In this document: positions 2,704 to 32,053 of the stretch, one piece after another
How the letters are laid out: each line of letters starts with the position of its first letter
How positions within the stretch are numbered: the stretch's first letter is position 1
Source of the DNA: Escherichia coli
Lineage (GTDB): Bacteria > Pseudomonadota > Gammaproteobacteria > Enterobacterales > Enterobacteriaceae
Direction: 5' to 3' (one strand)
Assembly: GCF_003991155.1 (NCBI RefSeq)
Contig: NZ_CP031293.1
DNA length: 64,000 nucleotides
The notes under the pieces: generated by a model
What the model was told of the DNA's origin: nothing
Databases searched by the model: none
Seen by the model: the letters and a program-made list of their open reading frames with translations, nothing else
Position numbers and translations under genes: made by a program

Positions 2704-5340
2704 TTAACGACATTCAGCTGATAGCTGGGTTAATAACTGCTGCTGACTCTCTGGTGGCAGTTGATAATTGGCGACACAGTGAGCATTTTCCTCTTCTCCC
2801 CATTTCACCTGAACTTTTCCCGCTAAAGGCATTCCGCTGAGGTAAACCTGACCATTATCCGCAACAATGCCGCTACTCTGGCTACTCTCTGATGTCACCA
2901 TCGCCCCAAACGGCAGCGGCTTATTATTGTGGGTCAGCGTCATGAGCAGTTTTATCCCAACGCGCGCTTTAAACTCTGCTCGCACGATCGCCCCACGGGT
3001 GGGAACAACGTTAGCGACCGCGTTATCTAAATCGACGTTATCAGCCAGGGTATTGGTATCCAGCGCTACTCTGTTTTCCCGATATTCAGTGGCATAAGGC
3101 AGCACGGCATAACCGCGCCAGTCGGTACGCACCCCCGTCTGGTTTTCGACTTTTGCATCTTTTGCGCCAGGCGCTTTAACAAGCACCACCGTATCGTTTA
3201 ACGGCTGCCCCAGCGTTACGCCATTGGCATGAGCCAGTACCCCACCGCTGACTCCGTAATAGAGCTGCTTAATATCATCGCTATGGCTGTAACCGATGTT
3301 GGCATTGCCGTAACCACCGCGATAATTCAGCGTGGCGTAGCCTGTACTTCCGCTATTACCATCGCCTCCCCCGGCATAGCCGGTTTGCACGCTATAGCTG
3401 AGGTTGTTGTCTGCCAGCAACGTACCGTATACACCGGCCAGATTGGTCATCCGACCGTTGAGATCGTGTGACATGCTGTAGCTGGCACTGGCATGTCGCC
3501 ACTGAGATTTACTGTCAGAACGCAGCCAGTGGCTGAAAGGAATATTGACGTTAAGCGCTAACATCTGATCCCGTCCTTTTTGCCAGGCGTTTTTCGTCAG
3601 GCTATAGCTGAGCGTCCAGTTAATATCTTCGAACGCAGTATTTAATCCAGCCTGGAATTGCTCATCGACATTACTCGTTCCCCAATAAGTTTGATGGCTA
3701 CCACTCAAATACAGTGTTGATGTGCGCCCGAGTTGCTGAGTAACGGTGAGTTGTAATTTCCCGCGTTTGTTATAAGCGAGATTGTAATAGTCGGTGAATT
3801 TCGGCTTAACCTGAATAACTCCGTCCTGTGTTTCGATGTTGTAGCCATTCATTCGACTGTATGTTGTATCAGCGAAATTAAAATATCCGCTGGTCGAATA
3901 ACGGTAACCCACTAACTGAATATTCGTGCCTGACTCATTGAGCGATTTGTTATAGAGAAAACGCACCGATTGTCCATCATGCTGACTGTCATCGGGAAGT
4001 GTGGAATTAGCCTGCGTCATATCCACAGACAGAGCGCCCAGTGCCCCCATGTTTTTCCCGATACCGAAATTAAACGCACGATAACGATCCGCCAGTTGCG
4101 TTCCACCATATATTGTCCAGCCAGCCGGAAGGCCGTGGAGTAATGTACTCTGGAAAAAGCGGGGTTTTTCCTGTTGCGCATTTCCACTACGGTATTCTCC
4201 TGCCGTAATGGAATAACGAGTATGCCCTTCACGTTGCAAAAGCGGGACTGACGAATAGGGTACGGTAAAAATCTGCGTGCTGCCGTCAGCCTCTTTGATC
4301 GTTACCTGCAAGTCACCACTATTACCTGCGGCATAGATATCGTTGATGGTAAAAGGCCCCGGTGGCACCGTACTATTATAAATGTCATACCCATTTTGTT
4401 TAATAGTGACCTGTGCAGTACCACGAGCAATACCGTGGATCACCGGGGCAAATCCTCTTTGGCTATCGGGTAACATATTGTCATCTGAGGCCAATTGTGC
4501 GCCGCGAAAGTTAATACCATCGAAAATATCGCCCTGAGTATAACCATCACCCAGCGTCAGCCGGGAACGTAACGGTATTATGTCTCGCTCAAGCCAGGTA
4601 TTGATATGCTGCCATTTATTTTTGCTACCTGATGAACTGTCGCTACTGTTATAACTCCAGGTGGTATTGTCGCGTAAACGCCACGCACCAATATTTAACC
4701 CACTCTGTAGGTTTAAATATGCATAATGGCTGTTACCCCCAATTCGATTCTGTACACTATTTCCGCTGAAATTATAATTGAGCAATCCGGCATTAATACC
4801 GGGATCCCATAACTCAGGAGGAATATAACCACGCGCGCGATTACTCATAAATGCCTGAGGGATCGTCAGGTTGAGTCGCTGCTGACCCACATCCAGTTGC
4901 GCAGTAGCGTCATGTATCATTGAGGTTAATGGCACGCAGGCATCATCCGCCAGCAGATTCATACCGGAGACAGAAGCCGTATTCAGCCCCATACTGGCAA
5001 GTTGCGCGCGTGTCAGGCAGGGAACAATCCCTTGTTCGCTGTCGCCCGTATTAAATGTGACATCACGCGTTGCCATATAACCATTATTCAAATAGATATC
5101 GACACGATACGTCCCTGGCGGTAATTCTTGCCCATTTTCAAAACGCGATAAATCAGCCACAGCCTGGGGATCATCCGCTAAAAAACGCGGGTTAAAATAG
5201 AGTTCGGCAGATGACAAAGGTGCCTGTGCGGTAAAAGCACAGGCAACAAAGAGCCGGACAAAAAAACCAGCCAAACGATGCTTACGAATATGCAAGCACT
5301 GTGTGTTTCGCTGGTAAAGTCTTAAATTCAGATATGACAT
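2704..5340 (-). CDS. fimD: outer-membrane usher FimD
   Basis: 878-aa ORF, usher family; between fimC and fimF. Confidence 0.95.
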   Translation of the reverse strand: MSYLNLRLYQRNTQCLHIRKHRLAGFFVRLFVACAFTAQAPLSSAELYFNPRFLADDPQAVADLSRFENGQELPPGTYRVDIYLNNGYMATRDVTFNTGDSEQGIVPCLTRAQLASMGLNTASVSGMNLLADDACVPLTSMIHDATAQLDVGQQRLNLTIPQAFMSNRARGYIPPELWDPGINAGLLNYNFSGNSVQNRIGGNSHYAYLNLQSGLNIGAWRLRDNTTWSYNSSDSSSGSKNKWQHINTWLERDIIPLRSRLTLGDGYTQGDIFDGINFRGAQLASDDNMLPDSQRGFAPVIHGIARGTAQVTIKQNGYDIYNSTVPPGPFTINDIYAAGNSGDLQVTIKEADGSTQIFTVPYSSVPLLQREGHTRYSITAGEYRSGNAQQEKPRFFQSTLLHGLPAGWTIYGGTQLADRYRAFNFGIGKNMGALGALSVDMTQANSTLPDDSQHDGQSVRFLYNKSLNESGTNIQLVGYRYSTSGYFNFADTTYSRMNGYNIETQDGVIQVKPKFTDYYNLAYNKRGKLQLTVTQQLGRTSTLYLSGSHQTYWGTSNVDEQFQAGLNTAFEDINWTLSYSLTKNAWQKGRDQMLALNVNIPFSHWLRSDSKSQWRHASASYSMSHDLNGRMTNLAGVYGTLLADNNLSYSVQTGYAGGGDGNSGSTGYATLNYRGGYGNANIGYSHSDDIKQLYYGVSGGVLAHANGVTLGQPLNDTVVLVKAPGAKDAKVENQTGVRTDWRGYAVLPYATEYRENRVALDTNTLADNVDLDNAVANVVPTRGAIVRAEFKARVGIKLLMTLTHNNKPLPFGAMVTSESSQSSGIVADNGQVYLSGMPLAGKVQVKWGEEENAHCVANYQLPPESQQQLLTQLSAECR

Positions 5341-12836: not shown

Positions 12837-13823
12837 ATGAACGCAATAATATCGCCCGATTATTACTATGTTCTTACCGTTGCTGGTCAGTCTAATGCCA
12901 TGGCGTATGGCGAAGGACTGCCATTACCGGACAGGGAAGATGCGCCTCATTCCAGAATTAAACAATTAGCGAGATTTGCGCATACGCATCCCGGAGGCCC
13001 GTCATGTCACTTTAACGACATTATTCCACTGACTCACTGCCCACACGATGTTCAGGATATGCAGGGTTATCACCATCCTCTGGCAACGAATCATCAAACA
13101 CAGTACGGCACCGTTGGCCAGGCACTGCATATAGCACGGAAATTACTGCCCTTCATTCCTGATAATGCAGGGATTCTCATCGTTCCGTGTTGCCGTGGCG
13201 GATCGGCTTTTACCGCAGGCAGCGAAGGGACATATTCAGAACGGCACGGAGCCAGCCATGATGCTTGTCGTTGGGGAACGGATACTCCGCTATACCAGGA
13301 TTTAGTCAGCAGAACGCGAGCCGCACTGGCAAAAAATCCGCAGAACAAATTCCTCGGCGTATGCTGGATGCAAGGCGAATTTGACTTAATGACCAGTGAC
13401 TACGCGTCACACCCTCAACACTTTAATCATATGGTTGAAGCCTTTCGTAGGGATCTAAAACAATACCATTCTCAGCTTAATAATATTACTGACGCACCGT
13501 GGTTTTGCGGCGATACCACCTGGTACTGGAAAGAAAAATTCCCTCATGCGTATGAAGCGATTTATGGCAATTATCAAAATAATGTTTTAGCCAATATTAT
13601 TTTCGTCGACTTCCAGCAACAAGGTGAAAGAGGACTGACGAACGCGCCTGATGAAGATCCGGACGATTTAAGCACGGGATATTACGGTTCAGCGTACCGG
13701 TCACCGGAGAACTGGACGACGGCACTGCGAAGCAGTCATTTCAGCGCGGCAGCCCGTCGGGGGATTATTTCTGACAGGTTTGTAGAAGCAATTTTGCGTT
13801 TGTCACATTTTCACAAAGAATAG
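12837..13823 (+). CDS. nanS: 9-O-acetyl-N-acetylneuraminate esterase NanS
   Basis: ORF 12810..13823 trimmed to MNAIISPDYYYVLTVAGQSNAMAYGEG (SGNH-type GQSN motif); synteny. Confidence 0.85.
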   Translation: MNAIISPDYYYVLTVAGQSNAMAYGEGLPLPDREDAPHSRIKQLARFAHTHPGGPSCHFNDIIPLTHCPHDVQDMQGYHHPLATNHQTQYGTVGQALHIARKLLPFIPDNAGILIVPCCRGGSAFTAGSEGTYSERHGASHDACRWGTDTPLYQDLVSRTRAALAKNPQNKFLGVCWMQGEFDLMTSDYASHPQHFNHMVEAFRRDLKQYHSQLNNITDAPWFCGDTTWYWKEKFPHAYEAIYGNYQNNVLANIIFVDFQQQGERGLTNAPDEDPDDLSTGYYGSAYRSPENWTTALRSSHFSAAARRGIISDRFVEAILRLSHFHKE

Positions 13824-13844
13824 TACACGCTATTCCTTGTGCAA

Positions 13845-14567
13845 TCAGGCCAACTCGCAATAAAGGCAGCAACTATGCTTGAAGCCCCTTCCCCGCCGGA
13901 TAAATAATATCCTTACGGCAATTGGTAACCGTATAAAAGGCCTGATGTTTTGAACTGCCGTTGACGGAGATGAAGTAATCTGCTTTTTTGGCAGCATCCA
14001 ATAACGCATCAATGGCAACGCGATCATTGTTGAGCTCAATTCATAGCGCTGGATACAATTTCAATAAGGCGTCTTTACCACGTTGCGTGGCATTTTTGTA
14101 ATACTGTAAAACACCCGCTTTTTCCCGCGGAGATTCCGATACAACGGAGACGTTACGCTTGCTGGTATGGTTTCTGTCGGGAGGGTACTACCGATATCCT
14201 TACAAGCGTAGAGCTGTTCCATCATGCGTGCCAACAACAACATACGGATATCCAACCGTTCCCAGCGACGTAGGAACATCTCGCGAATGTTAATCCAGTA
14301 CTGTAGTCGGCGATCGCTATCACCAGATTCACAATCATAAAGAACCTCTGCAATATCAAGAGTATACTTGAGAATTTATGTCGATTCATTTTTCGTGCAC
14401 AACATTTCGATAGCTTCGAGGGCATCATGGTATTCTTTGTGACTGAAGGTCCATGAAAGTAACGTATCGAGAATAATCCCTGTAGTTGCCAAAATGAGTT
14501 GATCACTACACAATGATTTGTTTGTACAGAAGGAACGATTATTATATGTTCTTGTAGGGCAGAGCAC
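13845..14567 (-). pseudogene. stop/frameshift-interrupted remnant of an unidentified gene (four short minus-strand ORFs in different frames)
   Basis: Consecutive 63-94-aa minus-strand ORFs that overlap or abut in shifting frames; no intact start/RBS context; lies at the left edge of the island. Confidence 0.35.
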
Positions 14568-14684
14568 GTTGCTACCGTAACAGCGTTGAAGATAATTTGG
14601 CCGAGACTGTAGTGGCCCAGTTTAAAAGGTAGCAGAATTTTAAAAGTGTCAGGTGCATAGAATTAAAAAAATGGAACTATAAAA

Positions 14685-16418
14685 ATGGAAATCATATTAC
14701 CAAAAAACACCTTATATGACAGAGAGCAAAATGTCTTTTTTGAAAAGGTTACGGCCTTAATTGGCGAAAATGGTGCTGGTAAGTCCTCGATTTTACAATC
14801 CGTATTTATTAACTGTTTAACAAAAAAATATCTACCAGAAACAAAGGTTGTTTGTTTTTCTTCTGGACAAAATGAGAAATACTCAACGTACTTCTCTGAT
14901 TATCTTTCTCATGAAAGGCAAGCAAATAGAGGTCTTAACTTAGATTGTTGTTATTACGATAAATCATGGTCAAAGTTACTAATATTCATATCCACAATTT
15001 GTAAATCAAATGGTCTTGTTAGAAATTTTTTATGTGAGAAAGGCTATATTGATGTATCAGATGATAAAAATGATGATATATCAAGCAAGCTTACATTGAC
15101 GGTCCGAGTAAATTCGGCTTACGTTAATCGAGTAAAAATGGCATTAGCACAAGAAGAACAAGGTATTGAAAATACTTTAAGGTATTCAGCTTATCATAGG
15201 ACTTTAGAAAGTTTCATTAATAATATTGTTAATGCTGATTATGATTTCGAGTCTCCACTTGAAGCTCAAGAGATCTTGCTAACTCATTCAAATTTTTTCA
15301 ATCCATCATTTGAGGAAGCAGAAGATTCCTTTTTTGATCCTATCATAACATTTTTCACTCAAGCAGCAGATAATGATTACTTTATAATAAAACCATCATT
15401 ACAGCTAGAGTTTAAAAATAATATCGAACTGAATGATATTAGTGATGGGGAATATCAAGTACTCTTTTTATACTCTCTGCTTGATATTTTTGATAGTCCT
15501 AATACTTTATTCTTATTAGATGAGATAGATTCCCATTTACATTACAAGAATATTGAGCTCTTATGGCATCGACTACATAGTATTAATGGTTATGCGATAA
15601 CAACCACCCATCTATTAGACTCAATTACAGCTACTGATAATGATTTTAAAAACTTAAAGATTGTTGATAAAGGAAAAATAAAAGAAGATGATAAAATAAA
15701 AACTATAATAGAACGTTTATCTGTCTTGACAAGAATATCAGACGTACAGTTCGAAGTGTGTCGTAAACTAGAAAACATAGTATTGATGGATGATTATAAT
15801 GATTGGACTATTTTTTATGCCTTAGCAAAGAAAAAAGGACTTGATGTATCAAAGTTAGATGGCCTCCATGCAATAAAACAGTCCTCTGGTTACGATAATT
15901 TAAATCAAGAGTTCGCAAAACCAAAAATAGAGTGGATTAATTCGCTTTTAAATGTAAATACTGATAAAAAAGTCAAAAGAATATTCATGATCTGCGACAA
16001 AGATGAGGCTCCAATTACCTATCAGAAAGATGGAGTTCAAGTCAATGGAAGTGAATATTCAAAACATATAGCGAAGTTAGAAAATAAAAACAAAAATAAA
16101 ATATATCTCCTTGCATGGAAAAGAAGAGAAATAAAAAACTACTTACTATCTTATACGGCATTGTCCCATCATGGATTTATCGAGCAAATAAACAATGGAG
16201 ATCTGCCAGCTAACAGTTATTTAAAAGAAAACGATCCTGGAGATAATTCAGCAATTAGCCGGCTTAACGTAAAACATTGCATCACAAAAATAATTGATTC
16301 TGATGGTATAGGATTAGATATATCAAAACTTTACTCATATATAGAACTTATACCACCTGCTGAGATCAGTGAAGATATAGTGAACATGTACAATTTTTTG
16401 GTGGAGAAATTAAAATGA
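14685..16418 (+). CDS. ABC-type (OLD/AAA_21-like) P-loop ATPase, 577 aa, with possible C-terminal TOPRIM/DUF4435-like nuclease region
   Basis: Walker A LIGENGAGKSS, signature-like ISDGEYQ, Walker B LFLLDEIDSHLH; C-terminal acidic motifs FMICDKDE and WKRREIKNYLL; very AT-rich; stop overlaps next gene start (ATGA at 16415-16418). Confidence 0.7.
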   Translation: MEIILPKNTLYDREQNVFFEKVTALIGENGAGKSSILQSVFINCLTKKYLPETKVVCFSSGQNEKYSTYFSDYLSHERQANRGLNLDCCYYDKSWSKLLIFISTICKSNGLVRNFLCEKGYIDVSDDKNDDISSKLTLTVRVNSAYVNRVKMALAQEEQGIENTLRYSAYHRTLESFINNIVNADYDFESPLEAQEILLTHSNFFNPSFEEAEDSFFDPIITFFTQAADNDYFIIKPSLQLEFKNNIELNDISDGEYQVLFLYSLLDIFDSPNTLFLLDEIDSHLHYKNIELLWHRLHSINGYAITTTHLLDSITATDNDFKNLKIVDKGKIKEDDKIKTIIERLSVLTRISDVQFEVCRKLENIVLMDDYNDWTIFYALAKKKGLDVSKLDGLHAIKQSSGYDNLNQEFAKPKIEWINSLLNVNTDKKVKRIFMICDKDEAPITYQKDGVQVNGSEYSKHIAKLENKNKNKIYLLAWKRREIKNYLLSYTALSHHGFIEQINNGDLPANSYLKENDPGDNSAISRLNVKHCITKIIDSDGIGLDISKLYSYIELIPPAEISEDIVNMYNFLVEKLK

Positions 16419-18322
16419 ACACCTCTTTATTTGAAGATCTACTTACACTAATCAAGAAAAAGAGTTCGATAAGGAATACAGAACAAGCAGTAGAGTTAAT
16501 TTCATTATTTATTTTTTTACATTATATAAAATTATATCTTTATGAAAATGATAAAAGATTTTCAGATATAAAAAACATATCAAGCAACAACATTAATGAA
16601 ATTAAATATTATTATCAGCAACTATATGAAAGTTTTATTTTCTCGATAGATATAAAAAATATAAACCACGACATGCTTGAAAAGCTCAGGAGTAAGATAG
16701 GTTTTTTAATTAATAACATCAATGACCATGAAATAATTAAATATATAGATTATTCTATTTCGCAGATACATTCACTTACAGAATTCTATCAATATGCAAA
16801 TTCTTATCAATCTTTAATTCTTAGGATGGTTAATGAATCGGGTCGTTCAGGTGAATATGTTACTCCATCTGCTTTAGTTCAGCTCATGGTTGAAATGTTA
16901 TCACCTACAGATGGCACATCAATCTACGACCCCGCATGTGGAACTGGGGGTTTATTAATAGAGTCAGCACGATATATTAAAGGCAACAGTTTAAACAAAA
17001 ACTTAAATTTAAATTATTCCCTTATTGGTAATGACACATCATCATTTGCCTGTCTAATCTCAATTGTTAACCTTTTAATCAATAAAGAATTTAATTTTGA
17101 AATAATACTAAAAGATAGCTTAGATATAAATTATAAGAATACAAAATATGACTTTATTTTAACTAACCCACCATTTGGGAAAAAGAGCGGTTGGGATAAT
17201 ATTCATATTGACACACATTATAAAGGACCTAATCTAGACTATTACTTCCTGGAGCATGTTATTGACTCTCTCGCTGTTAATGGCAAAGCAGCCATAATAT
17301 TACCAGAGCGTTTTTTATATGATGTGAGTAAAGAGTGCATCACTCTTAAAGATAAGATCTTCCAAAATTATAATTTAGATTGTATTTTATCTATACCGTC
17401 AGGTGCATTGCTTCCTTACACTGCAGTAAAATTATGTATTCTTTTTATAAGTAATCCTGGCCCAACAGATAGAATATTTTTCTACAATTTAAATAATGGT
17501 GAAAAATACTCACGTACAAATATTATAAAATTCGATGATTTTATAGATTTTTTAGAGTCAGCAAAAAATAGAACAATAACTGAACACTCCTGGATTATCA
17601 ATATTAGTGATACACCTTCATCTTATAACTTACTCTTAAAAGATAAAGAGCGAAACTCATATGAGTTTCTTAGTGATTCTATAGTTAACATTGAACAGAC
17701 AATACGTAATAATGAATTATTACTAACAGAGTTGTCTTTATTAAGAGAAAAAATAGCAATCTTAGAGTCAACAATAAAAAATCATTCGCATGAATATGAA
17801 TTTGAGAGACTTAAAGTTGGAAATATTGCAATAGTAAAATCCGGAAATTTATTACAAAAAAACAGGCTGTTACCCACTGGACCAATTCCTGTATACGGTG
17901 GAAATGGAGTTATTGGATATAACAATGAGGCAATGGTAAATGGTGAAAATATTATTATTGGTAAGGTCGGAGCTCTTTGCGGAAACGTTCGGTATGTTCA
18001 AGGTGATATTTGGGTGACAAATAACTCATTAATTATTAAGAATTATTTACCAAATAAAGTTTTAACACCCTACCTTGCAAAGTTATTATCTACTTTAAAC
18101 TTAAGAAAGCTCGCCGTTGGTACCGCTCAACAATATTTAACCACAACACAAATAAAAAATGTAGAAATTAGCATTCCACCTTTAACGACCCAGCATAAAT
18201 TAAATATGTGGCTTGATGAGTTAGATAATACCCTTGAACAATATAATAAGCTCATTGAAAAAATAATGAATGATAAGCGAGAACTTAAAGAGAATTTGTA
18301 TAAAGGTCTTTTAATAGAATAG
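16415..18322 (+). CDS. N6-adenine DNA methyltransferase (HsdM-like) fused to a single type I specificity (HsdS-like) target-recognition domain, 635 aa
   Basis: Motif I YDPACGTGGLL and motif IV LTNPPFGKK; C-terminal ~180 aa resemble an HsdS TRD plus conserved helix (...GKVGALCGNVRYVQGDIWVTNNSLIIK...); translationally coupled to the upstream ATPase. Confidence 0.75.
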   Translation: MNTSLFEDLLTLIKKKSSIRNTEQAVELISLFIFLHYIKLYLYENDKRFSDIKNISSNNINEIKYYYQQLYESFIFSIDIKNINHDMLEKLRSKIGFLINNINDHEIIKYIDYSISQIHSLTEFYQYANSYQSLILRMVNESGRSGEYVTPSALVQLMVEMLSPTDGTSIYDPACGTGGLLIESARYIKGNSLNKNLNLNYSLIGNDTSSFACLISIVNLLINKEFNFEIILKDSLDINYKNTKYDFILTNPPFGKKSGWDNIHIDTHYKGPNLDYYFLEHVIDSLAVNGKAAIILPERFLYDVSKECITLKDKIFQNYNLDCILSIPSGALLPYTAVKLCILFISNPGPTDRIFFYNLNNGEKYSRTNIIKFDDFIDFLESAKNRTITEHSWIINISDTPSSYNLLLKDKERNSYEFLSDSIVNIEQTIRNNELLLTELSLLREKIAILESTIKNHSHEYEFERLKVGNIAIVKSGNLLQKNRLLPTGPIPVYGGNGVIGYNNEAMVNGENIIIGKVGALCGNVRYVQGDIWVTNNSLIIKNYLPNKVLTPYLAKLLSTLNLRKLAVGTAQQYLTTTQIKNVEISIPPLTTQHKLNMWLDELDNTLEQYNKLIEKIMNDKRELKENLYKGLLIE

Positions 18323-18330
18323 ATCACAAT

Positions 18331-18357
18331 AGCAGGGTGTCCATAAAACACCCTGCT
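18331..18357. terminator. hairpin between convergent genes (AGCAGGGTG-loop-CACCCTGCT), possible bidirectional terminator
   Basis: Perfect 9-bp stem seen in sequence between the + strand MTase gene and the - strand hsdR; no clear U-tract. Confidence 0.4.
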
Positions 18358-18402
18358 ACTGGTTGCAAGTAAGTTGCAATATCTGTACTGCTGAAGCTAC
18401 TA

Positions 18403-21400
18403 TTAATAATGCTCCTCAATATACCCATACGCCTTCTGGAACAACTCTTTATCTTTCCCTAGTCCAAACTGGGCCAAGGTCAGTAAAAGCGCCTTTTGGA
18501 TTTCGCGCGGGCCACTGTTGGAATTTTGCCAGCCATCAAAGCGGGTAGCTTTCACAATTTTATCAATTTGCTCTACAACATCACCGATTAACTTAGGGGT
18601 AGTTTCCGGACGTGTTTCGAGGAAAAGCTTAGTCAACGCCTGTTTATTATCAGCTTCAGTTACTGGGCGCTCGCCCGTTTCGCGCTCGGCTTGAACGGTA
18701 TCTTTCGCTGCATCCAACAGGCCTTTCAACCAGTCAATGGCCTTGATAACACCAGCTTCATAGTCCTGACGCAGTTTTTCAAGGCGCTCGCCCAATGCCA
18801 CAAATTTAGGATCATGACTGCCGCGCAAACGTCCCATAAGATCAATCTCCAGGCGTTTGGCACGTTGTTCCTGCTCTTTAGCGGTCAGGGTAAAAATAGC
18901 GTGCTCGTCCATAACCAACTCGTCAATATCATCGCGAATACGATTGATATCAGTATGCTCATGGATCATCTTGATTGTTTCGGGGCCAAGGGCAGCCCAA
19001 ACAAGCGCACCTGTCTGCCCTACCGGACGCACCGATTCATAAATTTGCGCCAGCCATTTATAGTCCTGACGATAAGAGGTCAAAAAAGGATCTGGGTTGA
19101 TAGCTGACCATAACTTGGATAACACACCAAAGCTGGCAGCGAATTCATCGCGTTTCTCGTTGGTCGGCAGGCATTCCTGCGCGGCCATAATACCTTCAAA
19201 ACCAGCTATGGACCGATCCACACCAGGGAAGAAGGACAAACATTTATTCAGTTGTAACGGCAATAGCTCTTTAAATGCCTCAATTCCCTCTACAACTCCT
19301 TCAATTTCTTCAGGGTTATAGGCCAGAGCGGTACGCAGATTTTCGAAAACGCCGAGGTAGTCGATAATTAATCCCATGTCCTTGCGTACAGTATCGGTTT
19401 CGTACAACCGGTTGGTTCGGCACATGGCCTGAAGAAGAGTATGATCGCGTAGAGGCTTATCGAGGTACATGCAGTAGCAAATCGGGGCATCAAAACCCGT
19501 AAGCAGCTTGGCGGTTACGATAATAAGCTGTAATGGATGTTCAGGATCTTTAAAGCATTCAATCAGATCCTTTTGCACCTGTTCTTCGGCATCAATGTGC
19601 TGCCAGCGTTCAAAATCGACTTGTTTGACTGGCAGCTCCAACTCATCATGCCATTTAAGCCAATCCTTGTTGAGCTTGTCTTTTTTGCCACCCTCTTCAA
19701 CTTTAACCGGAGCCTGGTCAACGTTCATAACCACTTCAACCGCATCAAAACCAAGCTTTTCACCGAGCAAATAATACATCTGCACACAGGCTTCGCGATC
19801 GTATACCACAACCATGCCTTTCATCTTTTTCGGCATAACATGGTTGGTAAAATGCTCAGCAATATCATTACTCACCGCAGCCATACGCCTAGGGGATTTC
19901 AGCATGATTGCCAGCTTGCCTGCACGCCTGGACAATGCTGCTTTTTCTTCTTCATCCAGGTTGTTTTCGGTAGCCAGTTGCTCGAACTCTTCATTGATGG
20001 CATCACGATCCACTCGGAGTTCAGCCAGCCGAGGTTCGAACTTCACCGGGTTAGTTGCGCCATCCCGGATCGACTGCTTATAGCTATAGCGGCTCATATA
20101 GCGACCTGGATCTTCTTCGGCACCGAACAATTTGAACGTATTACGATCAATGCCAGAAATCGGAGTACCAGTCAGGCCATAGAAGTGGGCATTGGGCAAC
20201 GCCCAGCGCATTTTCTCGCCTAATCCCCCTTCCTGTGTACGGTGAGCTTCGTCAACCAACACAATGATATTGTCCCGGTTGTTCAGGCCATTAGGGTTGC
20301 TATCGTCAATTTCGATATCTTTAAATTTAAAGATGGTGGTGATTAAAATGCCACGGCTGTCTTGTTCTATGTATTCACCCAACTTTTTGCAGCTTTGCAC
20401 TTTAATCAGATTCTTAACGTCGGCTCCGCCAAAGGTCTCGTTAATTTGGCTGTCCAGATCTCGCCGGTCCACAACGATAAGTACCGTCGGGTTTTTTAAC
20501 GCATTATCGGCACGTAGCATTTTGGCGGCGTAAAGCATCAACAAGGATTTACCCGATCCCTGGAAATGCCAAATAAGACCTTTTTTTGGATAGCCTCTGC
20601 GAACACGCTCAACAATTTGTTTTGCAGCTTCAAATTGCGGATAACGCGGCAGGATTTTAACGCGTTTAGGTGGAGTATTTTTGCCCGTTTTGACGGTTGA
20701 AAATAATGCAAAAGATTCAAGTAACTGCAATAAGGTTTGTGGATTTAACAAACTCTCACAGCTGTTGAGTACCGATGCTAATCCCGGCAGAATTTCATCA
20801 CGAAGCTCAGTATTATGCCAGGGCCCCCAGTCTTTAACTCTGGCATTAATGGCACCATAGGCAAAGGTTTTTCCTTCGCTGGCAAAGCACAGCAAGTTAG
20901 GTACAAAGAAAGATTCAACATTTTTCCAGTAGTACTTTTTGCCACCCATGAAATCGGCAGCACCGTCTTGCCAGGTCACGCTGGGGCGTGTTGCGGTTTT
21001 AACTTCGCCCACTACTAGCGGTATGCCGTTCACATAAAGAACAATATCAAAATAGACTTCAGTGGCCGCGATATAGCGAACCTGCTGCGCCACCACAAAG
21101 TGGTTGTTCTCTATATTGTCAAAATCAATCAGATTGATGGTGATATGGTCGCCATTCTTACCAAAAGGCAAGGTTTTGTCGGCCATCAACCATTCCTGGA
21201 AGTTTTCATTGGCCTTTACCAAGCCGGTATGGCGGGCTTCTAAAACCACTCCTCGCAGTTTGTAAATGACCTCATCGGCATAGTCAGGCTGTCTGCCGAT
21301 ATCAGGGTTTAACGAACAAAGCGCGTCTTTTAGCCACTCATCAACGAAGATATCCTGCGCTTGTTTAGGCAGGTTTTCACCGTGGCAGTAAGTCCACTTG

Positions 21401-21465
21401 ACTCCGCTTAAACCTTTTAAACGGTCGATAATTCCATTTTCTGTGACGGTTTGTTCGTTAAACAA
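18403..21465 (-). CDS. hsdR: type I restriction enzyme R subunit (HsdR), 1020 aa
   Basis: N-terminal PD-(D/E)xK-like DIVLYVNGIPLVVGEVK; helicase motif I HFQGSGKS and DEAH box IVLVDEAHRTQ; directly follows hsdS. Confidence 0.9.
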   Translation of the reverse strand: MFNEQTVTENGIIDRLKGLSGVKWTYCHGENLPKQAQDIFVDEWLKDALCSLNPDIGRQPDYADEVIYKLRGVVLEARHTGLVKANENFQEWLMADKTLPFGKNGDHITINLIDFDNIENNHFVVAQQVRYIAATEVYFDIVLYVNGIPLVVGEVKTATRPSVTWQDGAADFMGGKKYYWKNVESFFVPNLLCFASEGKTFAYGAINARVKDWGPWHNTELRDEILPGLASVLNSCESLLNPQTLLQLLESFALFSTVKTGKNTPPKRVKILPRYPQFEAAKQIVERVRRGYPKKGLIWHFQGSGKSLLMLYAAKMLRADNALKNPTVLIVVDRRDLDSQINETFGGADVKNLIKVQSCKKLGEYIEQDSRGILITTIFKFKDIEIDDSNPNGLNNRDNIIVLVDEAHRTQEGGLGEKMRWALPNAHFYGLTGTPISGIDRNTFKLFGAEEDPGRYMSRYSYKQSIRDGATNPVKFEPRLAELRVDRDAINEEFEQLATENNLDEEEKAALSRRAGKLAIMLKSPRRMAAVSNDIAEHFTNHVMPKKMKGMVVVYDREACVQMYYLLGEKLGFDAVEVVMNVDQAPVKVEEGGKKDKLNKDWLKWHDELELPVKQVDFERWQHIDAEEQVQKDLIECFKDPEHPLQLIIVTAKLLTGFDAPICYCMYLDKPLRDHTLLQAMCRTNRLYETDTVRKDMGLIIDYLGVFENLRTALAYNPEEIEGVVEGIEAFKELLPLQLNKCLSFFPGVDRSIAGFEGIMAAQECLPTNEKRDEFAASFGVLSKLWSAINPDPFLTSYRQDYKWLAQIYESVRPVGQTGALVWAALGPETIKMIHEHTDINRIRDDIDELVMDEHAIFTLTAKEQEQRAKRLEIDLMGRLRGSHDPKFVALGERLEKLRQDYEAGVIKAIDWLKGLLDAAKDTVQAERETGERPVTEADNKQALTKLFLETRPETTPKLIGDVVEQIDKIVKATRFDGWQNSNSGPREIQKALLLTLAQFGLGKDKELFQKAYGYIEEHY

Positions 21466-21466
21466 T

Positions 21467-22633
21467 TTATTGTCCCCTCAGAAGAATATTCAAATAACTG
21501 GACTTGAGTTTACGAATTTTTTGAAGCCTTGATTTAGCTTCTCTATAACTGTTTTCGGCTAAATGTAATATATCCTTATATTTCCCAAGCTCTCTTGATG
21601 GTGGTATAACCATCTTCTGAGAATGTACATCGGCATCATTAACAGCCGGGAAACTTGTACCAACTGCCAAATTGGTTAATGAATAAGTGAATTGCTTCGA
21701 CAAAGTGAAATAATAAATAAAATCGGACAAATCATTTTTTGCCCTTAGAACAGTAAAACCTGTTGATGCTATTGAATCATTCAATATTTCAGACACATAA
21801 AACGTAGCTCTATGATTGGGTCTAACAGTGCTAACAACAATATCTTTTTCCTTAAGAATACGCCGAGCTCGGCTGGGGGCTTCAGCGAAATGGTATTCTT
21901 TAGGAGTATCGACAAAACCAGGAAAAGTCACTGAAGATATATCTATATACCTAATCAGCTTATTTTTATTGGCATCATTACTTAACAAGTCAAAATTAAT
22001 ATTTGATACATCCTTCAATCTAACTTTGTTATATCCAAATGGCAGTTTTTCTTTTCGATCAAATGTAGTCAACCGATCAATTAATCTTTGAAATAAATTT
22101 AATGCAGACCTTTCAGTCTCATTTGCACAATGTAATACTTGTTCGATTTTTTTTAAAGAATTTAAAAAATCAACTTGCAGATCCATTTCAGGAATAATAA
22201 ATTCCTGCTGACTTAAAACTTTCCATTTTATCGTTGGAGACAATGACCCCTCCGAAATTGCTACTGCACGATTCATGAAAGTATCAGACTGCATAATAAA
22301 GGGTAAAAACTCAGGTATTACAGTATTTGAATTTGCCTCCAGAACCATGGCATGAGCCGAACAGATACAATCCCAATCTGCTACCGCGACTTTACGTTGA
22401 TAAGCACGACGCTTACCAAAAATAATCTGGCCTTTTTTCACTAAAAGCTTCTGCCCTTCAACGTCACTGGGTGTACCATGACGTTTGATTTTCAGGCTGT
22501 CAGGGTCTAAATGCTCCAAACCGACATAAATTTCAAGGTCTGTCTCGCTCGGTTCCACTCGTTTAGAGATATGTTTAGCGATATCGCCAAACTTCACCAT
22601 TTGCCAGCCTTCAGGTAATTGCTGTTCTGTCAT
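21467..22633 (-). CDS. hsdS: type I restriction-modification specificity subunit (HsdS), two TRDs
   Basis: 388-aa protein with two variable regions separated by conserved spacer; second TRD coding region markedly AT-rich; abuts hsdM and hsdR. Confidence 0.85.
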   Translation of the reverse strand: MTEQQLPEGWQMVKFGDIAKHISKRVEPSETDLEIYVGLEHLDPDSLKIKRHGTPSDVEGQKLLVKKGQIIFGKRRAYQRKVAVADWDCICSAHAMVLEANSNTVIPEFLPFIMQSDTFMNRAVAISEGSLSPTIKWKVLSQQEFIIPEMDLQVDFLNSLKKIEQVLHCANETERSALNLFQRLIDRLTTFDRKEKLPFGYNKVRLKDVSNINFDLLSNDANKNKLIRYIDISSVTFPGFVDTPKEYHFAEAPSRARRILKEKDIVVSTVRPNHRATFYVSEILNDSIASTGFTVLRAKNDLSDFIYYFTLSKQFTYSLTNLAVGTSFPAVNDADVHSQKMVIPPSRELGKYKDILHLAENSYREAKSRLQKIRKLKSSYLNILLRGQ

Positions 22634-24133
22634 TTACTGCTCCACCTTGCTTTCAACGTTATATCCAAGCTCTGCAAGGCTCTGGAATAATTTATTAGTT
22701 TGCTTTTTCAACTGAGTACGGCTTACTTTCCACGCTTCAATCGCATGTTCAATATTATGTACTTCAGCGTTGTTTTGTGCTTGCACATACAGTGGAATTG
22801 AAAGGTTATAAAGGTTTTCTTTAATAGCTTCAATATTCACTAAAGAGGTTATATCGTTTTTTTTCTCCGGATTAAAATAAGCCTCGCATAATACCTCCAA
22901 ATCCTCATCGGATAAGCGACTATGAGCGCGTTCACGGGTAACATGCTCAACCCCGTTGATAAATAACACTTTATTTTTGCGTTCGGCAGGTTTATTGCAA
23001 TTAAGCACCACCACACAAGATTCCATCGGCGAGTTATAAAACAGATTTGGTCCCAAACCAATCACCGCTTCAATAATGTCCGATTCAATCACCTGTTTAC
23101 GAATGGCCTGCTCAGAATCACGGAACAGCACACCGTGTGGCCAGAGCATAGCAGCACGACCGGTATCGGGTTTTAAACTTTTAATTATATGGGTATAAAA
23201 AGCATAATCAGCGCAGCCCTGCGGTGGGACACCATAAAGATTTCGACCATACGGATCAGCAGCAAACTTGTCACGATTCCATTTTTTAATGGAGTACGGT
23301 GGGTTGGCAAAAATCACATCAAACTGCTTGAGCCGATCGTTTTCAATAAACTTTGGCTCAGCCAAAGTATCACCACGCAGCACATCAAACTCTTCAATAT
23401 CGTGCAGGAACATATTCATACGGGCGATTGCGGATGTCAGCAGGTTCACTTCCTGACCATAAAGGTGCACAGAGCGCCACTCTTCCCCTCTAGCACGCAG
23501 ATCCATCACTGCATTTAGCAACATCCCACCTGTGCCACACGTTGGATCATAGGCGGTTTCACCCGGTTTTAAGCCCATAATGCGCGTCATTAAATGCACG
23601 ACTGTTCGGTTGGTGTAGAACTCTGCTGCCGTATGACCGGAATCATCAGCGAACTTTTTAATCAGGTATTCGTAGGCCTCACCAAGATCATCCTGAGCGA
23701 CAGATTTAATGCCTAGCGGAATTTGACTGAAATGTTCAATCAGATCAGCCAGCAGATGATCGGGCAGGCGCTCTTTATTGGTCCACTGCGCATCACCGAA
23801 GACGCCATGTAAACGCGGATTATTGGCTTCAATTAGTCGAAGCGCATTCTGGATCGCTTCACCAATGTTTTTACTGGTATTGCGTACCTTTTCCCAACTG
23901 GCTTCAGAGGGAATGTTGAAACGGTGAAACATCGGCATGGCGGCATATTCAGCATCACCTTCATGGAGTTCCAGCGCTTCGTTATATTCTTCCAGATAGA
24001 CATCTGACAGGCGTTTGTAAAACAGCAACGGGAAGATATACTGCTTGTAGTCTGATGCGTCAATTTGGCCACGAAGAAATTCGGCGGCTCCCCAGAGCAG
24101 CTCTTCCAGCTTTTTATTACTCATAGTACTCAT
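22634..24133 (-). CDS. hsdM: type I N6-adenine methyltransferase subunit, paralogue B (499 aa)
   Basis: Motif I YDPTCGTGGMLL, motif IV FANPPYSIKKW; start overlaps stop of upstream hsdM paralogue (24130-24133). Confidence 0.85.
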   Translation of the reverse strand: MSTMSNKKLEELLWGAAEFLRGQIDASDYKQYIFPLLFYKRLSDVYLEEYNEALELHEGDAEYAAMPMFHRFNIPSEASWEKVRNTSKNIGEAIQNALRLIEANNPRLHGVFGDAQWTNKERLPDHLLADLIEHFSQIPLGIKSVAQDDLGEAYEYLIKKFADDSGHTAAEFYTNRTVVHLMTRIMGLKPGETAYDPTCGTGGMLLNAVMDLRARGEEWRSVHLYGQEVNLLTSAIARMNMFLHDIEEFDVLRGDTLAEPKFIENDRLKQFDVIFANPPYSIKKWNRDKFAADPYGRNLYGVPPQGCADYAFYTHIIKSLKPDTGRAAMLWPHGVLFRDSEQAIRKQVIESDIIEAVIGLGPNLFYNSPMESCVVVLNCNKPAERKNKVLFINGVEHVTRERAHSRLSDEDLEVLCEAYFNPEKKNDITSLVNIEAIKENLYNLSIPLYVQAQNNAEVHNIEHAIEAWKVSRTQLKKQTNKLFQSLAELGYNVESKVEQ

Positions 24134-25629
24134 ACCTCGAAACCTTCTTTGATAAGCAGGGCCTCCAGCTCCTCTTCTGCTTTTTCCAGCTCAGCCAGCT
24201 TCCGTTGAAAATCTTTGAGCGCCTCTTCCACAGTGATGGTTTCTTCTTCGAGTGGCTTTTGCACATAACGAGCAATATTTAGATTGAAGTCATTTTCTTC
24301 AATCTCCTTCAGAGAAACCCAGCGTGCAACGCCTTCGATTTCTTTTGCATCTGGCCCTTGTTGCGCCTGGTCATGATAGATTTGGTATATTTCATCGGCC
24401 TGCTTGTTGGACAGCGTATTCTGCGCACGTCCCTTGGTATAGATTTCTTCAGCATTGATGATCAATACATGATCTTTATGCGCGGCCGGACGTGATTTAC
24501 GCAGCACCAAAATACACGCAGGAATCCCAGTCCCATAGAACAGGTTGGAAGCAACACCAATAATCGCCACAATGCGATTCTCTTGCAGTAATTTGGTTCG
24601 AATTGCCCCCTCTGCGCCGCCACGAAACAGCACACCATGAGGTAATACGACTGCCATACGTCCATTGTCGTTAAGTGAAGCAAACATATGCTGCACCCAG
24701 GCAAAATCACCATTTGTTTTAGGCGCCAGGCCATATTGCTTACGGCCATAGGGATCGTTCGACCACAGATCGTATCCCCATTCTTTTAAGCTAAATGGTG
24801 GGTTGGCAACAACGCAGTCAAAGGTTTCTAAACGATCGCTTTTTAAAAATTTAGGTTCGCGTAAAGTATCCCCTCGGACAATATCGAAATCTTCCTGTCC
24901 ATGCAGGAACAGATTCATACGCGCAATAGCTTCCGTCGTTAAGTTCTTTTCCTGACCCTTGATTTTTAGTAAACGCGGATCACCACCATTTTCTTTTACA
25001 TGGTGGATGGTCTCAAGCAGCATACCACCGGTACCACAGGCGGGATCGTAGACACTCTCACCGGCTTTTGGATCAAGAATGTTAACCATCAAACGAACGA
25101 TAGTTCGTGGGGTATAGAACTCACCGGCTTTCTTATTGGCTTTGTCTGCAAAGCGTTTGATCAGATACTCGTATGCGCGCCCCATATCATCGTCACGGAC
25201 ACTAGAAACGCCAAGGTTCACCTTATTGAAGTGATTGAGTAACGTAGCCAGTAACTCATCAGAAAGGCGTTCTTTATTGGTCCAGCTGGCATCGCCAAAA
25301 ATGCCATGCAGTTTAGGGTTTGCCAGTTCTATACCACGGAAGGACTCTTTTAAAGCCTGACCGATGTCCTTGGTCTCAGCGAAAACATCGCGCCAGTGGC
25401 AATTTTCAGGTATCTGAATACGGTGAAACATCTTGCCCTTGGCAAGCTCTGCATCCCCAATGCTCTCCATCGCATCGGCAAATTCTTCGTCATACACGTC
25501 ACAAATGCGCTTGAAGAACAGGATGGGGAAAATGTACGTTTTGTAATCTGACGCATCAATGGGCCCTGTAATAATATGGGCTGCATGCCATAGATGGGCC
25601 TCGAGATCTTTTAGGTTAATCAGTGTCAT
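24130..25629 (-). CDS. hsdM: type I N6-adenine methyltransferase subunit, paralogue A (500 aa)
   Basis: ORF 24130..25731 trimmed to MTLINLKDLEAHLW; motif I YDPACGTGGMLL, motif IV VANPPFSLKEW; homologous over full length to paralogue B. Confidence 0.85.
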   Translation of the reverse strand: MTLINLKDLEAHLWHAAHIITGPIDASDYKTYIFPILFFKRICDVYDEEFADAMESIGDAELAKGKMFHRIQIPENCHWRDVFAETKDIGQALKESFRGIELANPKLHGIFGDASWTNKERLSDELLATLLNHFNKVNLGVSSVRDDDMGRAYEYLIKRFADKANKKAGEFYTPRTIVRLMVNILDPKAGESVYDPACGTGGMLLETIHHVKENGGDPRLLKIKGQEKNLTTEAIARMNLFLHGQEDFDIVRGDTLREPKFLKSDRLETFDCVVANPPFSLKEWGYDLWSNDPYGRKQYGLAPKTNGDFAWVQHMFASLNDNGRMAVVLPHGVLFRGGAEGAIRTKLLQENRIVAIIGVASNLFYGTGIPACILVLRKSRPAAHKDHVLIINAEEIYTKGRAQNTLSNKQADEIYQIYHDQAQQGPDAKEIEGVARWVSLKEIEENDFNLNIARYVQKPLEEETITVEEALKDFQRKLAELEKAEEELEALLIKEGFEV

Positions 25630-25872
25630 TGTTGTCTCTTTTCGATCCTGCAGTGCTTGAACTCTCAGCAACTCATGGATTTCACAGTAAAAAAGCAAGT
25701 AAAGCGATTCCACAACCACCTGAGCGTTCAATATGTATGACGCCTTTACCCAAGTTGCTTAAATCAAGGAAATTGCCAGAGATAATACTCTGGCATCAGA
25801 ATGATACCAAGTTGAAGGGCTGATTTCCGCATCAATACCTTGTGGTAATAGGGGATTACTCTTTTACCCTTA

Positions 25873-26910
25873 TTGGCGCAAAATGGCGGCATTTCCTCAT
25901 TTCTCCATCGGAGCATCTTACGCGCTATAACCACTCTCGTTTTTTCCTATTCCCATGCAGATGAAGCACTACGCAATGAACTTGAGAAGCATCTCTCCCC
26001 GCTGAAGCGAACCGGGAAGATCACAACATGGCACGATCGCCGCATCGTTCCTGGTCAGGAGTTCGAACGTCAGATCGACCACTATTTTTCGCAAGCAGAT
26101 ATCATCCTGATCCTGATCAGCAGTGACTTTATTGCTTCTGATTACTGCTATCAGGTAGAGATGAAAAACGCACTGGAACGGCATAACCGGGGCGAGGCAG
26201 TGGTCATTCCGGTAATTTTAAGAGACTGTGCATGGCATCAGTTAGAATTCGGCAGCATTATGGCGGCGACTATCGACGGTAAACCCATCACTAAGTTTGC
26301 CACCCACGATGAAGGCTACGTTCAGGTCGTCGAGGCTGTCTCGCGTGCCATTGCCCGGATGGAAGCCAAAAAACCACAGCAAACCATACATATCCCTTCA
26401 CCGGCTCCGGCGAATCCGATCTTTCAGGGAGTAGATTCCGTTTTTACACCGCGTTCAAGCAACCTTACTCTACCCAAGAAATTTACCGATCTGGATAAAG
26501 ATCGTGCCAGACGTGAGGGCTTTGAATATGTTGCCCGCTATTTTGAAAATTCGTTAGATGAACTCAAAAAGCGCCACCCCGGATTAGATATCGATTTTAA
26601 TCGGCTTGATACAGATTCATTCACCTGTGCCGTGTATATCAATGGCAGTAAGGTCGGCCAATGTGGCATCTGGCGAGGCAATCAACATCATGGAATGGGA
26701 GATATCTGTTATAGCCAGGATAATGTTGTTCGAAACAGTATTAACGAAACTCTAAGCCTTGCTGATAACGGCCAGACTCTTGGTTTTCGTGCTCTGATGG
26801 GAGGCTTCAGTCGAGGAACTTCACGAGACGAACTATTGACCAATGAAGGTATGTCGGAACATCTCTGGGAAATGTTCTTCGGGCTAATCAAGCAAAGAAT
26901 GTCCCGATAA
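25873..26910 (+). CDS. TIR-domain protein with uncharacterised ~180-aa C-terminal domain
   Basis: TIR-like N-terminus (VFSYSHADE..., WHDRRIVPGQEF, ADIILILISSDFIASDYCYQVEM with a Glu at the expected catalytic position); only in-frame start is TTG at 25873 and no clear Shine-Dalgarno, so the N-terminus is uncertain. Confidence 0.65.
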   Translation: MAQNGGISSFLHRSILRAITTLVFSYSHADEALRNELEKHLSPLKRTGKITTWHDRRIVPGQEFERQIDHYFSQADIILILISSDFIASDYCYQVEMKNALERHNRGEAVVIPVILRDCAWHQLEFGSIMAATIDGKPITKFATHDEGYVQVVEAVSRAIARMEAKKPQQTIHIPSPAPANPIFQGVDSVFTPRSSNLTLPKKFTDLDKDRARREGFEYVARYFENSLDELKKRHPGLDIDFNRLDTDSFTCAVYINGSKVGQCGIWRGNQHHGMGDICYSQDNVVRNSINETLSLADNGQTLGFRALMGGFSRGTSRDELLTNEGMSEHLWEMFFGLIKQRMSR

Positions 26911-26925
26911 TTTGCCATATCACAG

Positions 26926-26947
26926 TCGGGCATACTGCCCGATTTTT
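26926..26947 (+). terminator. rho-independent terminator downstream of the TIR gene
   Basis: Stem TCGGGCA/TGCCCGA with 3-nt loop followed by TTTTT. Confidence 0.65.
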
Positions 26948-27094
26948 GTGCTGTCATTATTGGCAATATCTCAATAGGCGTTGAGAAATGGTGCAATTTA
27001 ATCTTGCCAGAGCGCTGTTACTTGGGGACGAAATTAATGGGCTCCTGCTGTAGTTACAGCAACGCCTGTAAATACAAAAATAGGCGTTGCAAAT

Positions 27095-28150
27095 TCATGC
27101 TGGCAAATACGTTTTCTTAAGCGGCACCAATAGCTTAGTCTCTATATCCACTTGCTCATAGTTTTCAACTAACGCGCGTACCAAATCATCCAGCGTCCAT
27201 AGCGTCAACGGGATTGTAGAACGATCGGCCTCATAACGCGCATCCTTGCTGAATCCGCCGGTACTGACATACAGCCCGCGATCGTCTTTATGGCGGCCAC
27301 CGATAAAGCTACGGATTTGCTGGCTGCTCATCTGTTCCCGCCGGTGCTTCACCTCAACAATAATGCGCGGATTTTCAAACCCAAATCCGTCAGGCGAAGC
27401 AATGATGTCTTTCCCACGGTCAGCACCCGCAGGCGATACCTGAGTTTTATATCCCATGCTGCGTAACACGCCAGCGACCAGATTCTGCATCTCATCCCAG
27501 TCGAGACGGTTGATACGATCCTTGATGCCTTCAAAAGCGATCATTTCCATGTCGCGCAGAGGATTAGAAACGACCTCATCCTCTTCACCTGAAACAGGTA
27601 CTTCCGGCACGATATCTGAGACAGGCTTATTGCCCTGCACTAATTCATTCACAGCAAAATCAGGCACCTGAAAAACTGTCAGCGTTGAACCAAGGGTGTT
27701 TCTAGTTGCATCACTCAGACTATCGCGCTTAATCTCTTCCGCATTCCACTTCACTTTACGGGCGATGCCCATGCCATCTTCAAGCCACTCGGCATGAAAC
27801 TCAAAATCTGACGCTATTTTCCCTATTAAATAGGTCCGATTAGAAGGTGAATAAGTGATAGCCCAGTCGCCTTTCTGCATTTCATTCACAAAGCGCCAGA
27901 CCTGAGAAGCTCCAGAACGAACTGTGCCTGGCTTAGTCTGTGGCTCAAGCTCCTGATACCGGGTAAACAACTGCTCTCTTGAGCATCCAGGTTTCACATA
28001 GGGAGCGAGCTGCGACCAACCAATTGCAACAACCTGTTTGTCTCTGAAGTCGTCGTACAATTTTCCGCCATCACCGCGGATCATCCACATCTTAGTCGCC
28101 ACAATAATTCCTTCTGAAAATACTTCATCGTTATACCGGGACGTGATCAT
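27095..28150 (-). CDS. Mrr-family (PD-(D/E)xK) restriction endonuclease with N-terminal PUA/EVE-like putative modified-base reader; probable type IV enzyme
   Basis: C-terminal domain alignable with E. coli Mrr catalytic region (DIIASPDGFG...IIVEVKHRR...LYVSTGGFS); start set at ATG 28150 preceded by AAGGTGG; N-terminal RFVNEMQKGDWAITYS resembles EVE-domain core. Confidence 0.7.
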   Translation of the reverse strand: MITSRYNDEVFSEGIIVATKMWMIRGDGGKLYDDFRDKQVVAIGWSQLAPYVKPGCSREQLFTRYQELEPQTKPGTVRSGASQVWRFVNEMQKGDWAITYSPSNRTYLIGKIASDFEFHAEWLEDGMGIARKVKWNAEEIKRDSLSDATRNTLGSTLTVFQVPDFAVNELVQGNKPVSDIVPEVPVSGEEDEVVSNPLRDMEMIAFEGIKDRINRLDWDEMQNLVAGVLRSMGYKTQVSPAGADRGKDIIASPDGFGFENPRIIVEVKHRREQMSSQQIRSFIGGRHKDDRGLYVSTGGFSKDARYEADRSTIPLTLWTLDDLVRALVENYEQVDIETKLLVPLKKTYLPA

Positions 28151-28212
28151 TCCATTCAGCCACCTTATCCAGGGGAAAAACACCGATAAGATGGCTAATC
28201 AAAATGTCTGTT

Positions 28213-31728: not shown

Positions 31729-32053
31729 TACCAGTCCTATGACTCAATGAAATCCATTGATTTATCGAATATAAAATCACCGTATGGATAACTATTGTCC
31801 ACGTTGAAAGGCTGGCTGCAATGTTTTGTTCACGCTTCGATACAAATACTCAGGTTATACGGAGTTCAGAAAACGACCATATCATGTTGCATGGCACATA
31901 AAAGCTTTATAACCGAAGCAGCAAAGGATTACCGGCTGCGCAGCACGCCCCGAAAGCCCGTGAGCCCTGCTGGACAGCGTTCAGTGCAATATTGGAGCCT
32001 GTAAGTTCAGAAAATATCGCTGTCGAAGATGGTTCTGTATGTAGGCGCGCCAG

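Follow-up and report, generated by a model that had tools for sequence, protein, structure and literature searches.

Homology identifies a decayed dpdD 3′ remnant at the nanS-side boundary of the Escherichia coli leuX island

We found that positions 13845–14486 on the minus strand of a 64-kb E. coli window (the whole stretch of DNA analysed, to which all positions refer unless another sequence is named) hold, judged by homology, what is left of the 3′ part of dpdD; this pseudogene, which belongs to a known gene family and has no annotation, is designated dpdD′ here. Very probably, this segment is a non-functional fossil of a Dpd island that formerly occupied leuX, the interior of which was replaced by other genes before the surviving edge drifted. 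The remnant is inert today and marks a former occupant only. In this respect it is an ordinary case, as the gene family, the hotspot and the replacement dynamics have all been described before (PMC5699537, PMC12707154); it is an unannotated dpdD pseudogene fragment at a known hotspot subject to a known replacement process. The locus provides a coordinate-level example of defence-hotspot turnover, in which the interior is replaced and the edges decay.

A variable defence island between nanS and leuX

The gene order in the window runs from the fim genes, fimE/fimB and nanC-nanM-nanS through the island to leuX, ahr and idnK/D/O/T. The nanS–leuX interval comprises ~19.8 kb of variable DNA of low GC content (down to 0.30). 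It has the marks of a genomic island: a tRNA gene forms one boundary, and the content between nanS and leuX differs among other strains. Its main landmarks are listed below.

12837–13823, plus strand: nanS, encoding a sialate O-acetylesterase, with which the core genes end on this side of the island (annotated so by RefSeq in genomes that are 100% identical).
13797–13798, unstranded: core/variable junction, the left (nanS-side, leuX-distal) island boundary (junction alignment and megablast).
14685–33279: present island cargo, mixed defence genes (PADLOC scan and RefSeq annotation of an identical genome).
33622–33706, minus strand: leuX, tRNA-Leu(CAA), the island anchor and right boundary (ARAGORN and RefSeq annotation).

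The cargo encodes an ABC-type AAA ATPase, an M/S-fusion N6-methylase and a type I restriction-modification (R-M) system (hsdR, hsdS and two hsdM), together with a ThsB-like TIR protein, a PDC-S02 restriction endonuclease, a MkoC-like protein (Mokosh), a hypothetical protein and an HNH endonuclease. According to a previous survey, leuX is E. coli defence hotspot #37 and the most highly occupied defence island, with systems residing there “with replacement”; the same work reports Dpd in 2% of enterobacterial genomes (PMC12707154). The Dpd system inserts 7-deazaguanine derivatives into DNA and restricts unmodified DNA. Modification is assigned to dpdA, dpdB and dpdC and restriction to dpdD–K, although DpdD itself has no known specific role (PMC10164549).

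nanS and the ATPase gene are separated by an 861-bp spacer (13824–14684), in which RefSeq calls nothing or, in some assemblies, “hypothetical proteins” of 63–143 aa. RefSeq locus tags jump by one number at this spacer in L001 and L027 (RS01605→RS01595; RS24970→RS24960), which suggests that a feature was once called in the spacer and later dropped.

Homology of the joined reading frames to DpdD

An earlier sequence-only reading had listed four short minus-strand ORFs at this end of the island (13845–14039, 14061–14279, 14222–14506 and 14376–14567) and proposed that they represent one former gene. All four ORFs are present, and their joined frames do have a homologue: a search with them led to DpdD rather than to independent small genes.

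13845–14486, minus strand: dpdD′, decayed 3′ remnant corresponding to about residues 500–720 of ~720 (joined-frame, NCBIfam, tblastn and HMM evidence).

Against NCBIfam NF041061 (DpdD equivalog, 704 positions), the frame-corrected remnant scored 161 bits (E = 5e-47) over profile positions 496–704 of 704. This score, which reflects coverage of the last ~30% of the profile, falls below the curated cut-off of 300 bits for a full-length member, and intact DpdD proteins score 504–596 bits on the same profile. Searching with the joined frames retrieved three proteins carrying the precomputed annotation PF28109 (DpdD), among them P0003, a 250-aa protein that is 67% identical to the query and aligns to positions 460–704 of NF041061. 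PF28109 appears just in such precomputed annotations; scans of the joined frames and of P0003 against a local copy of Pfam-A returned no match. An exhaustive phmmer search of 1.84 billion representatives yielded 903 matches at E ≤ 0.001 and revealed that P0003 corresponds to the C-terminal ~250 residues of ~715-aa proteins, three of which were scanned against NF041061 and reached 504–529 bits (cut-off 300).

The same relationship was observed at the DNA level. tblastn of the remnant region against P0003 produced E values of 2e-53 and 3e-30, far beyond chance, and three full-length DpdD proteins (~716–723 aa) each aligned to three collinear segments in three frames:

14480–14094, minus strand: segment 1, residues ~505–635.
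14121–13885, minus strand: segment 2, residues 627–705.
13894–13859, minus strand: segment 3, residues 701–714.

A Hidden Markov Model built from 100 full-length DpdD proteins recovered 14486–14097, 14094–13885 and 13894–13856, in that order, and detected no further DpdD piece, including the N-terminal part, elsewhere in the 64-kb window. Likewise, tblastn with the D2 proteins DpdA, DpdB, DpdE–K and QueD and their 283-aa neighbour, and with DpdG–K from two other clusters, identified no dpd gene in the window apart from dpdD′. In contrast to a Dpd system, which spans dpdA–K, the window lacks co-located dpdA/dpdB and dpdE–K. Because dpdA and dpdB are missing, both 7-deazaguanine modification (dPreQ0/dADG) of carrier DNA and restriction of unmodified DNA would be expected to be absent. 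Rfam (E ≤ 1) detected no RNA family within 13500–15000, and the counts from promoter and terminator scans were near those of shuffled sequence (5 versus 2.7 ± 1.7 and 2 versus 1.0 ± 1.0, respectively).

A dpdD pseudogene could be entered in the annotation of the spacer, which RefSeq leaves blank in about 100 complete genomes, and the locus calls for caution in surveys that count Dpd from dpdD matches alone.

Lesions along the ancestral reading frame

The ORFs had been described as consecutive and in shifting frames, and this description needs adjustment. Three of them (14376–14567, 14061–14279 and 13845–14039) share one frame and are separated by stops, and the fourth (14222–14506) overlaps two of these in another frame; what stands is the idea of a single former gene broken by stops and frameshifts. 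The ancestral DpdD frame is followed solely by 14376–14567 (from 14486 down) and 14061–14279 (down to ~14097), and the ORFs 14222–14506 and 13845–14039 are off-frame by-products without a family match. Across 14094–13885, the ancestral frame instead corresponds to a 42-aa ORF at 13873–14001, which had been outside the earlier list and on its own matches DpdD (E = 8e-12).

We placed the lesions by codon-by-codon DNA alignment to the closest relative, L009, the locus of P0003 in an SRA assembly (74.5% nucleotide identity). The ancestral path on the minus strand is as follows:

14486–14099, minus strand: frame −3, with TAA at 14376–14378 (CAA in L009).
~14098, minus strand: 1-bp deletion, changing frame −3 to −2.
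14097–13886, minus strand: frame −2, with TGA at 14041–14043 (TCA in L009).
~13886, minus strand: 1-bp deletion, changing frame −2 to −1.
13885–13859, minus strand: frame −1.
~13858, minus strand: 1-bp deletion, followed by the last four codons.
13845–13847, minus strand: native dpdD stop codon TGA, retained.

Relative to L009, the remnant has accordingly accumulated two nonsense codons and three 1-bp deletions, and the N-terminal ~500 codons are gone. After these five repairs the C-terminus reads …AAFIRELA*, with the last eight residues identical to those of P0003. No uninterrupted ORF spans the remnant, and the lesions recur in independent complete genomes; since the identical sequence is found in dozens of complete genomes, both sequencing error and an uninterrupted alternative reading are excluded.

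Boundaries of the remnant

On the nanS side, homology to ~5000 E. coli genomes ends at ~13797–13801 (megablast query_to = 502 in ~4900 genomes). Alignment of the window at this point with a K-12-type strain (L017) and with EC21Z-144 (L018) places the core/variable junction at 13797/13798. The remnant is located at this junction, which bears out the placement of a decayed gene at the left boundary of the island. The final eight codons and the stop codon of nanS (13798–13823) come from non-core DNA, yielding a chimeric C-terminus in which the usual …EAILQFWRER* is replaced by …EAILRLSHFHKE*.

13814–13839, minus strand: hairpin just 3′ of dpdD, CAAGGAATAG-N6-CTATTCTTTG, with one mismatch.

The nanS stop codon (13821–13823) sits inside one arm of this hairpin. 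A AAGGAATAG-N6-CTATTCCTT hairpin likewise follows dpdD in E. coli D2 (L019, 23768–23791) and in L009, and DNA homology with L009 extends past the dpdD stop codon to 13813. The hairpin is probably the native dpdD terminator.

The extent first proposed for the decayed gene, 13845–14567, was accurate at its lower end, as the native stop codon ends exactly at 13845, and too generous at its upper end, where DpdD homology ceases at 14486.

14487–14510, unstranded: 5′ breakpoint interval of dpdD′, between the end of DpdD profile homology (14486) and the start of foreign-block homology (14511).
14511–14684, plus strand: upstream region of the ATPase block, with ~84% nucleotide identity to Salmonella enterica and K. 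aerogenes loci.

The upper third of ORF 14376–14567 extends into ATPase-block DNA and lies outside the dead gene. The Salmonella and Klebsiella loci carry the same ATPase/methylase/type I R-M block without a dpdD remnant; their ~84% identity was measured over 14511–19000, beyond which the gene order is the same. These two foreign loci share with each other a further ~400 bp leftward that is absent from E. coli, and the E. coli join at 14487–14510 is therefore a breakpoint cutting both partners. A plasmid search with the ATPase block returned just one weak match, to a Vibrio ATPase.

In the K-12-type strain L017, positions 3128–4841, equivalent to the window from ~13900 onward, hold a frameshifted gene for a phosphorothioate-dependent restriction endonuclease and the yjhR helicase pseudogene. 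The window and K-12-type strains (KpLE2 region) both have defence-gene fossils directly after nanS, at the leuX-distal end. The K-12-type fossils belong to unrelated families, and the native nanS end …QFWRER* is intact there, whereas it is cut in the window. At the nanS end of the leuX region, the remains of decayed defence genes recur.

Intact dpd islands at leuX and relatives of the remnant

A blastn search with a foreign dpdJ-K-D segment revealed that 47 of the 5426 complete E. coli genomes have an annotated intact dpd cluster at leuX, in the same orientation. The expectation that the identity of the decayed gene could name an earlier occupant of the site was borne out in this way, the occupant being a Dpd island that is still intact at leuX in these 47 other genomes. 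The E. coli D2 locus (L019) runs through ahr, leuX, integrase, a hypothetical gene, dpdA, dpdB, dpdE-F-G-H-I-J-K and dpdD to a convergent queD. Here dpdD closes the dpd series and points away from leuX, and the window agrees in both position and orientation, dpdD′ and leuX both lying on the minus strand. dpdD is also terminal in two dpd clusters outside E. coli. A dpd cluster of S. Montevideo is likewise located at leuX (PMC5699537); the remnant thus shares the hotspot with the D2 and S. Montevideo clusters, and its orientation relative to leuX is that of D2.

Compared with DpdD of D2 (WP_000332369.1), the remnant is alike in the C-terminal ~210 residues (51% identity over D2 residues 512–722 of 723), in the position of the stop codon and in the hairpin. 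Unlike intact DpdD, it consists of the last ~30% of the gene, contains two nonsense codons and three frameshifts, belongs to a distinct sequence lineage and is non-functional. It is closer to P0003, with 72% amino acid identity over 212 aligned columns. The L009 locus of P0003 is, like the remnant, a deletion derivative that keeps the 3′ part of dpdD, with homology running through the stop codon and the hairpin. However, L009 has an open frame of 250 codons and retains the convergent queD, and its dpdD is cut at about residue 459 and fused to a dpdJ/K piece, whereas the remnant is cut at about residue 500, has lost queD, abuts nanS and bears many lesions. Within L009 (2893–4282), queD is 96% identical in amino acid sequence to the queD of the D2 island and the dpdD parts are just 65% identical, a mosaic arrangement.

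Neither the 5426 complete E. coli genomes nor the GTDB species representatives yielded an intact dpdD of the remnant’s own lineage. Scanning the latter with the reconstructed protein retrieved one distant gammaproteobacterial locus (34% identity), and a blastn (“distant”) search of the complete E. coli genomes with the spacer returned the 102 carriers of the fossil only, with no intact close DNA relative. We also considered a stand-alone protein family consisting of the DpdD C-terminus, represented by entries of 256–278 aa, and rejected it: in the three checked from the 50% library (L024, L025 and L026), the proteins start <60 bp from the ends of contigs <2 kb and are truncated gene calls.

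Distribution and ongoing decay

Of the 5426 complete E. coli genomes, 102 carry the fossil, in every case flanked by nanS and the ATPase gene and at 97.9–100% identity; it was seen in E. coli alone and at one site. All seven sampled variants have three lesions in common: the TGA at 14041–14043 and the two deletions at ~14098 and ~13858. Other lesions are lineage-specific among the seven, namely TAA/CAA at 14378, an inserted T at 14345, a deleted A at 13989, an inserted A at 13891 and a TAA at 14053. The fossil continues to gather damage.

A Tajima relative-rate test with D2 as the outgroup counted 35 unique amino acid changes in the remnant versus 6 in P0003 (p = 6e-6), and the excess persisted with three other outgroups. 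This faster amino acid change fits relaxed constraint. Polymorphism among the seven E. coli variants, with 9 synonymous and 12 non-synonymous differences, is too sparse to indicate neutrality on its own, and a control segment of nanS is similar (8 and 9, respectively).

An integrase fossil at the leuX end

RefSeq annotation of an identical genome shows no intact integrase beside leuX. What is found there is a 171-bp fossil with an in-frame stop codon:

33281–33451, minus strand: int′, P4-type tyrosine integrase fossil beside leuX, residues ~15–69 of 414.

In tblastn, int′ is 63% identical in amino acid sequence to the integrase of the E. coli D2 island (E = 3e-13), and nucleotide identity is 82% over 33351–33451. 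The start codon and the first 14 codons are missing, the frame contains a TAG, and the fossil is cut off by the HNH endonuclease gene (32500–33279). The suggestion that the decayed gene may have “occupied or mobilised” the island holds for occupation: dpdD′ is former cargo and not a mobiliser, and it is at the opposite end, at 33281–33451, that a P4-type integrase fossil lies. From the two fossils we infer that an old integrase-borne island has kept its two ends while its interior was replaced, so that a Dpd system as the earlier occupant and a P4-type integrase as the earlier mobiliser would persist just as fossils at opposite island ends. P4-family integrases also serve leuX islands with different cargo, which leaves int′ without a specific link to the Dpd island.

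An attR repeat of the leuX 3′ end was sought across 13001–33500, including the nanS boundary; this interval contains no 11- or 12-nt match and one chance 10-mer. A missing attR repeat is consistent with a distal deletion into nanS.

History of the locus and alternative explanations

The identity, lesions, boundaries and distribution of the remnant, and the intact dpd islands at the same site, are matters of observation, and we infer the order of the deletion and replacement events as follows. A P4-integrase island of the type leuX-int-dpdA/B-dpdE..K-dpdD-(queD...) would once have filled the leuX–nanS interval, its dpdD directed away from leuX. The inner part of this island, reaching from close to the integrase start to roughly codon 500 of dpdD, would then have been lost and replaced by other defence modules, with the ATPase/methylase/type I R-M block brought against the break at 14487–14510. 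A second deletion would have run from the dpdD hairpin through at least the last 23 nt of nanS. The surviving 640 bp would since have drifted without selection, acquiring two nonsense codons and three 1-bp deletions, with further lesions that differ among strains.

The strongest alternative concerns where the truncation took place. The fragment may have been broken before it reached E. coli, arriving at the margin of a larger leuX-island segment from a different enterobacterium through recombination between conserved flanks. Because the nearest relative, P0003/L009, is itself truncated and the intact E. coli type is just 51% identical, decay within E. coli is only the likelier course. An imported fragment would also account for the lack of any intact copy of the remnant’s lineage (72% identical to P0003 and 51% to E. 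coli DpdD) in the 5426 complete E. coli genomes and for the absence of this lineage from GTDB species representatives. In addition, the neighbouring modules are common to several genera at ~84% nucleotide identity, and truncated dpdD copies do occur elsewhere (L009). However, the remnant abuts E. coli-specific nanS sequence, with the junction inside that gene, is found in E. coli alone and at one site, and is missing beside the adjacent block in Salmonella and Klebsiella. We consider import unlikely, although it deserves to be kept in view, and it would alter the history of the remnant and not its identity.

A second alternative grants the homology and disputes the loss of function, proposing that the C-terminal segment of DpdD is still a small functional protein in some strains, for example a regulatory or anti-restriction domain. 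Some strains do have an ancestral-frame ORF of 143–186 codons, annotated by RefSeq as a hypothetical protein (143 aa); L005, L006 and L008 keep 179–186 codons of that frame open, and two independent remnants (the window and L009) retain the C-terminal part. In the window, however, the frame is broken by the TAA at 14376–14378, and all sampled strains lose it at ~14098, before the most conserved C-terminal block. The indels are polymorphic among strains, and the amino acid rate is strongly accelerated. Retention of the 3′ end is trivially explained, since dpdD is the terminal gene of the cluster, and the “C-terminal-only” DpdD proteins in databases are contig-edge truncations. A surviving small protein is therefore highly improbable. 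A broader version, in which a function maintains either that part of DpdD or the bare DNA, for example by buffering transcription or carrying a promoter between the convergent nanS and the ATPase/methylase/type I R-M block, has only the slimmest chance of being correct; if true, it would explain both the persistence of a ~640-bp piece in 102 genomes and the open 250-codon C-terminal frame of L009.

Finally, there is a negligible probability that the ORFs lack a common origin, being separate small genes or frames open by chance between genes: none of the four matches a family alone, the local Pfam-A scan is empty and RefSeq leaves the 861 bp unannotated, but the region shows collinear homology to one family over three frames (E values of 1e-30 to 1e-53) and conserves the stop codon and the downstream hairpin. 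A decayed dpdD fossil remains by far the best reading of 13845–14486.

Other features of the present island

The segment 14511–25731, encoding the ATPase, the M/S-fusion methylase, hsdR, hsdS and two tandem hsdM, also occurs as a unit in S. enterica and K. aerogenes. PADLOC assigned it weak MADS-like matches (mad3, mad2 and mad5) beside the type I R-M matches, and the block may therefore constitute one composite system instead of two. At the other end of the island, strain 2016C-3878 (NZ_CP029747.1, L010), which is otherwise identical, has an extra ~12-kb element at leuX, in the equivalent of window positions ~33300–33700, carrying a site-specific integrase and phage baseplate-like genes.
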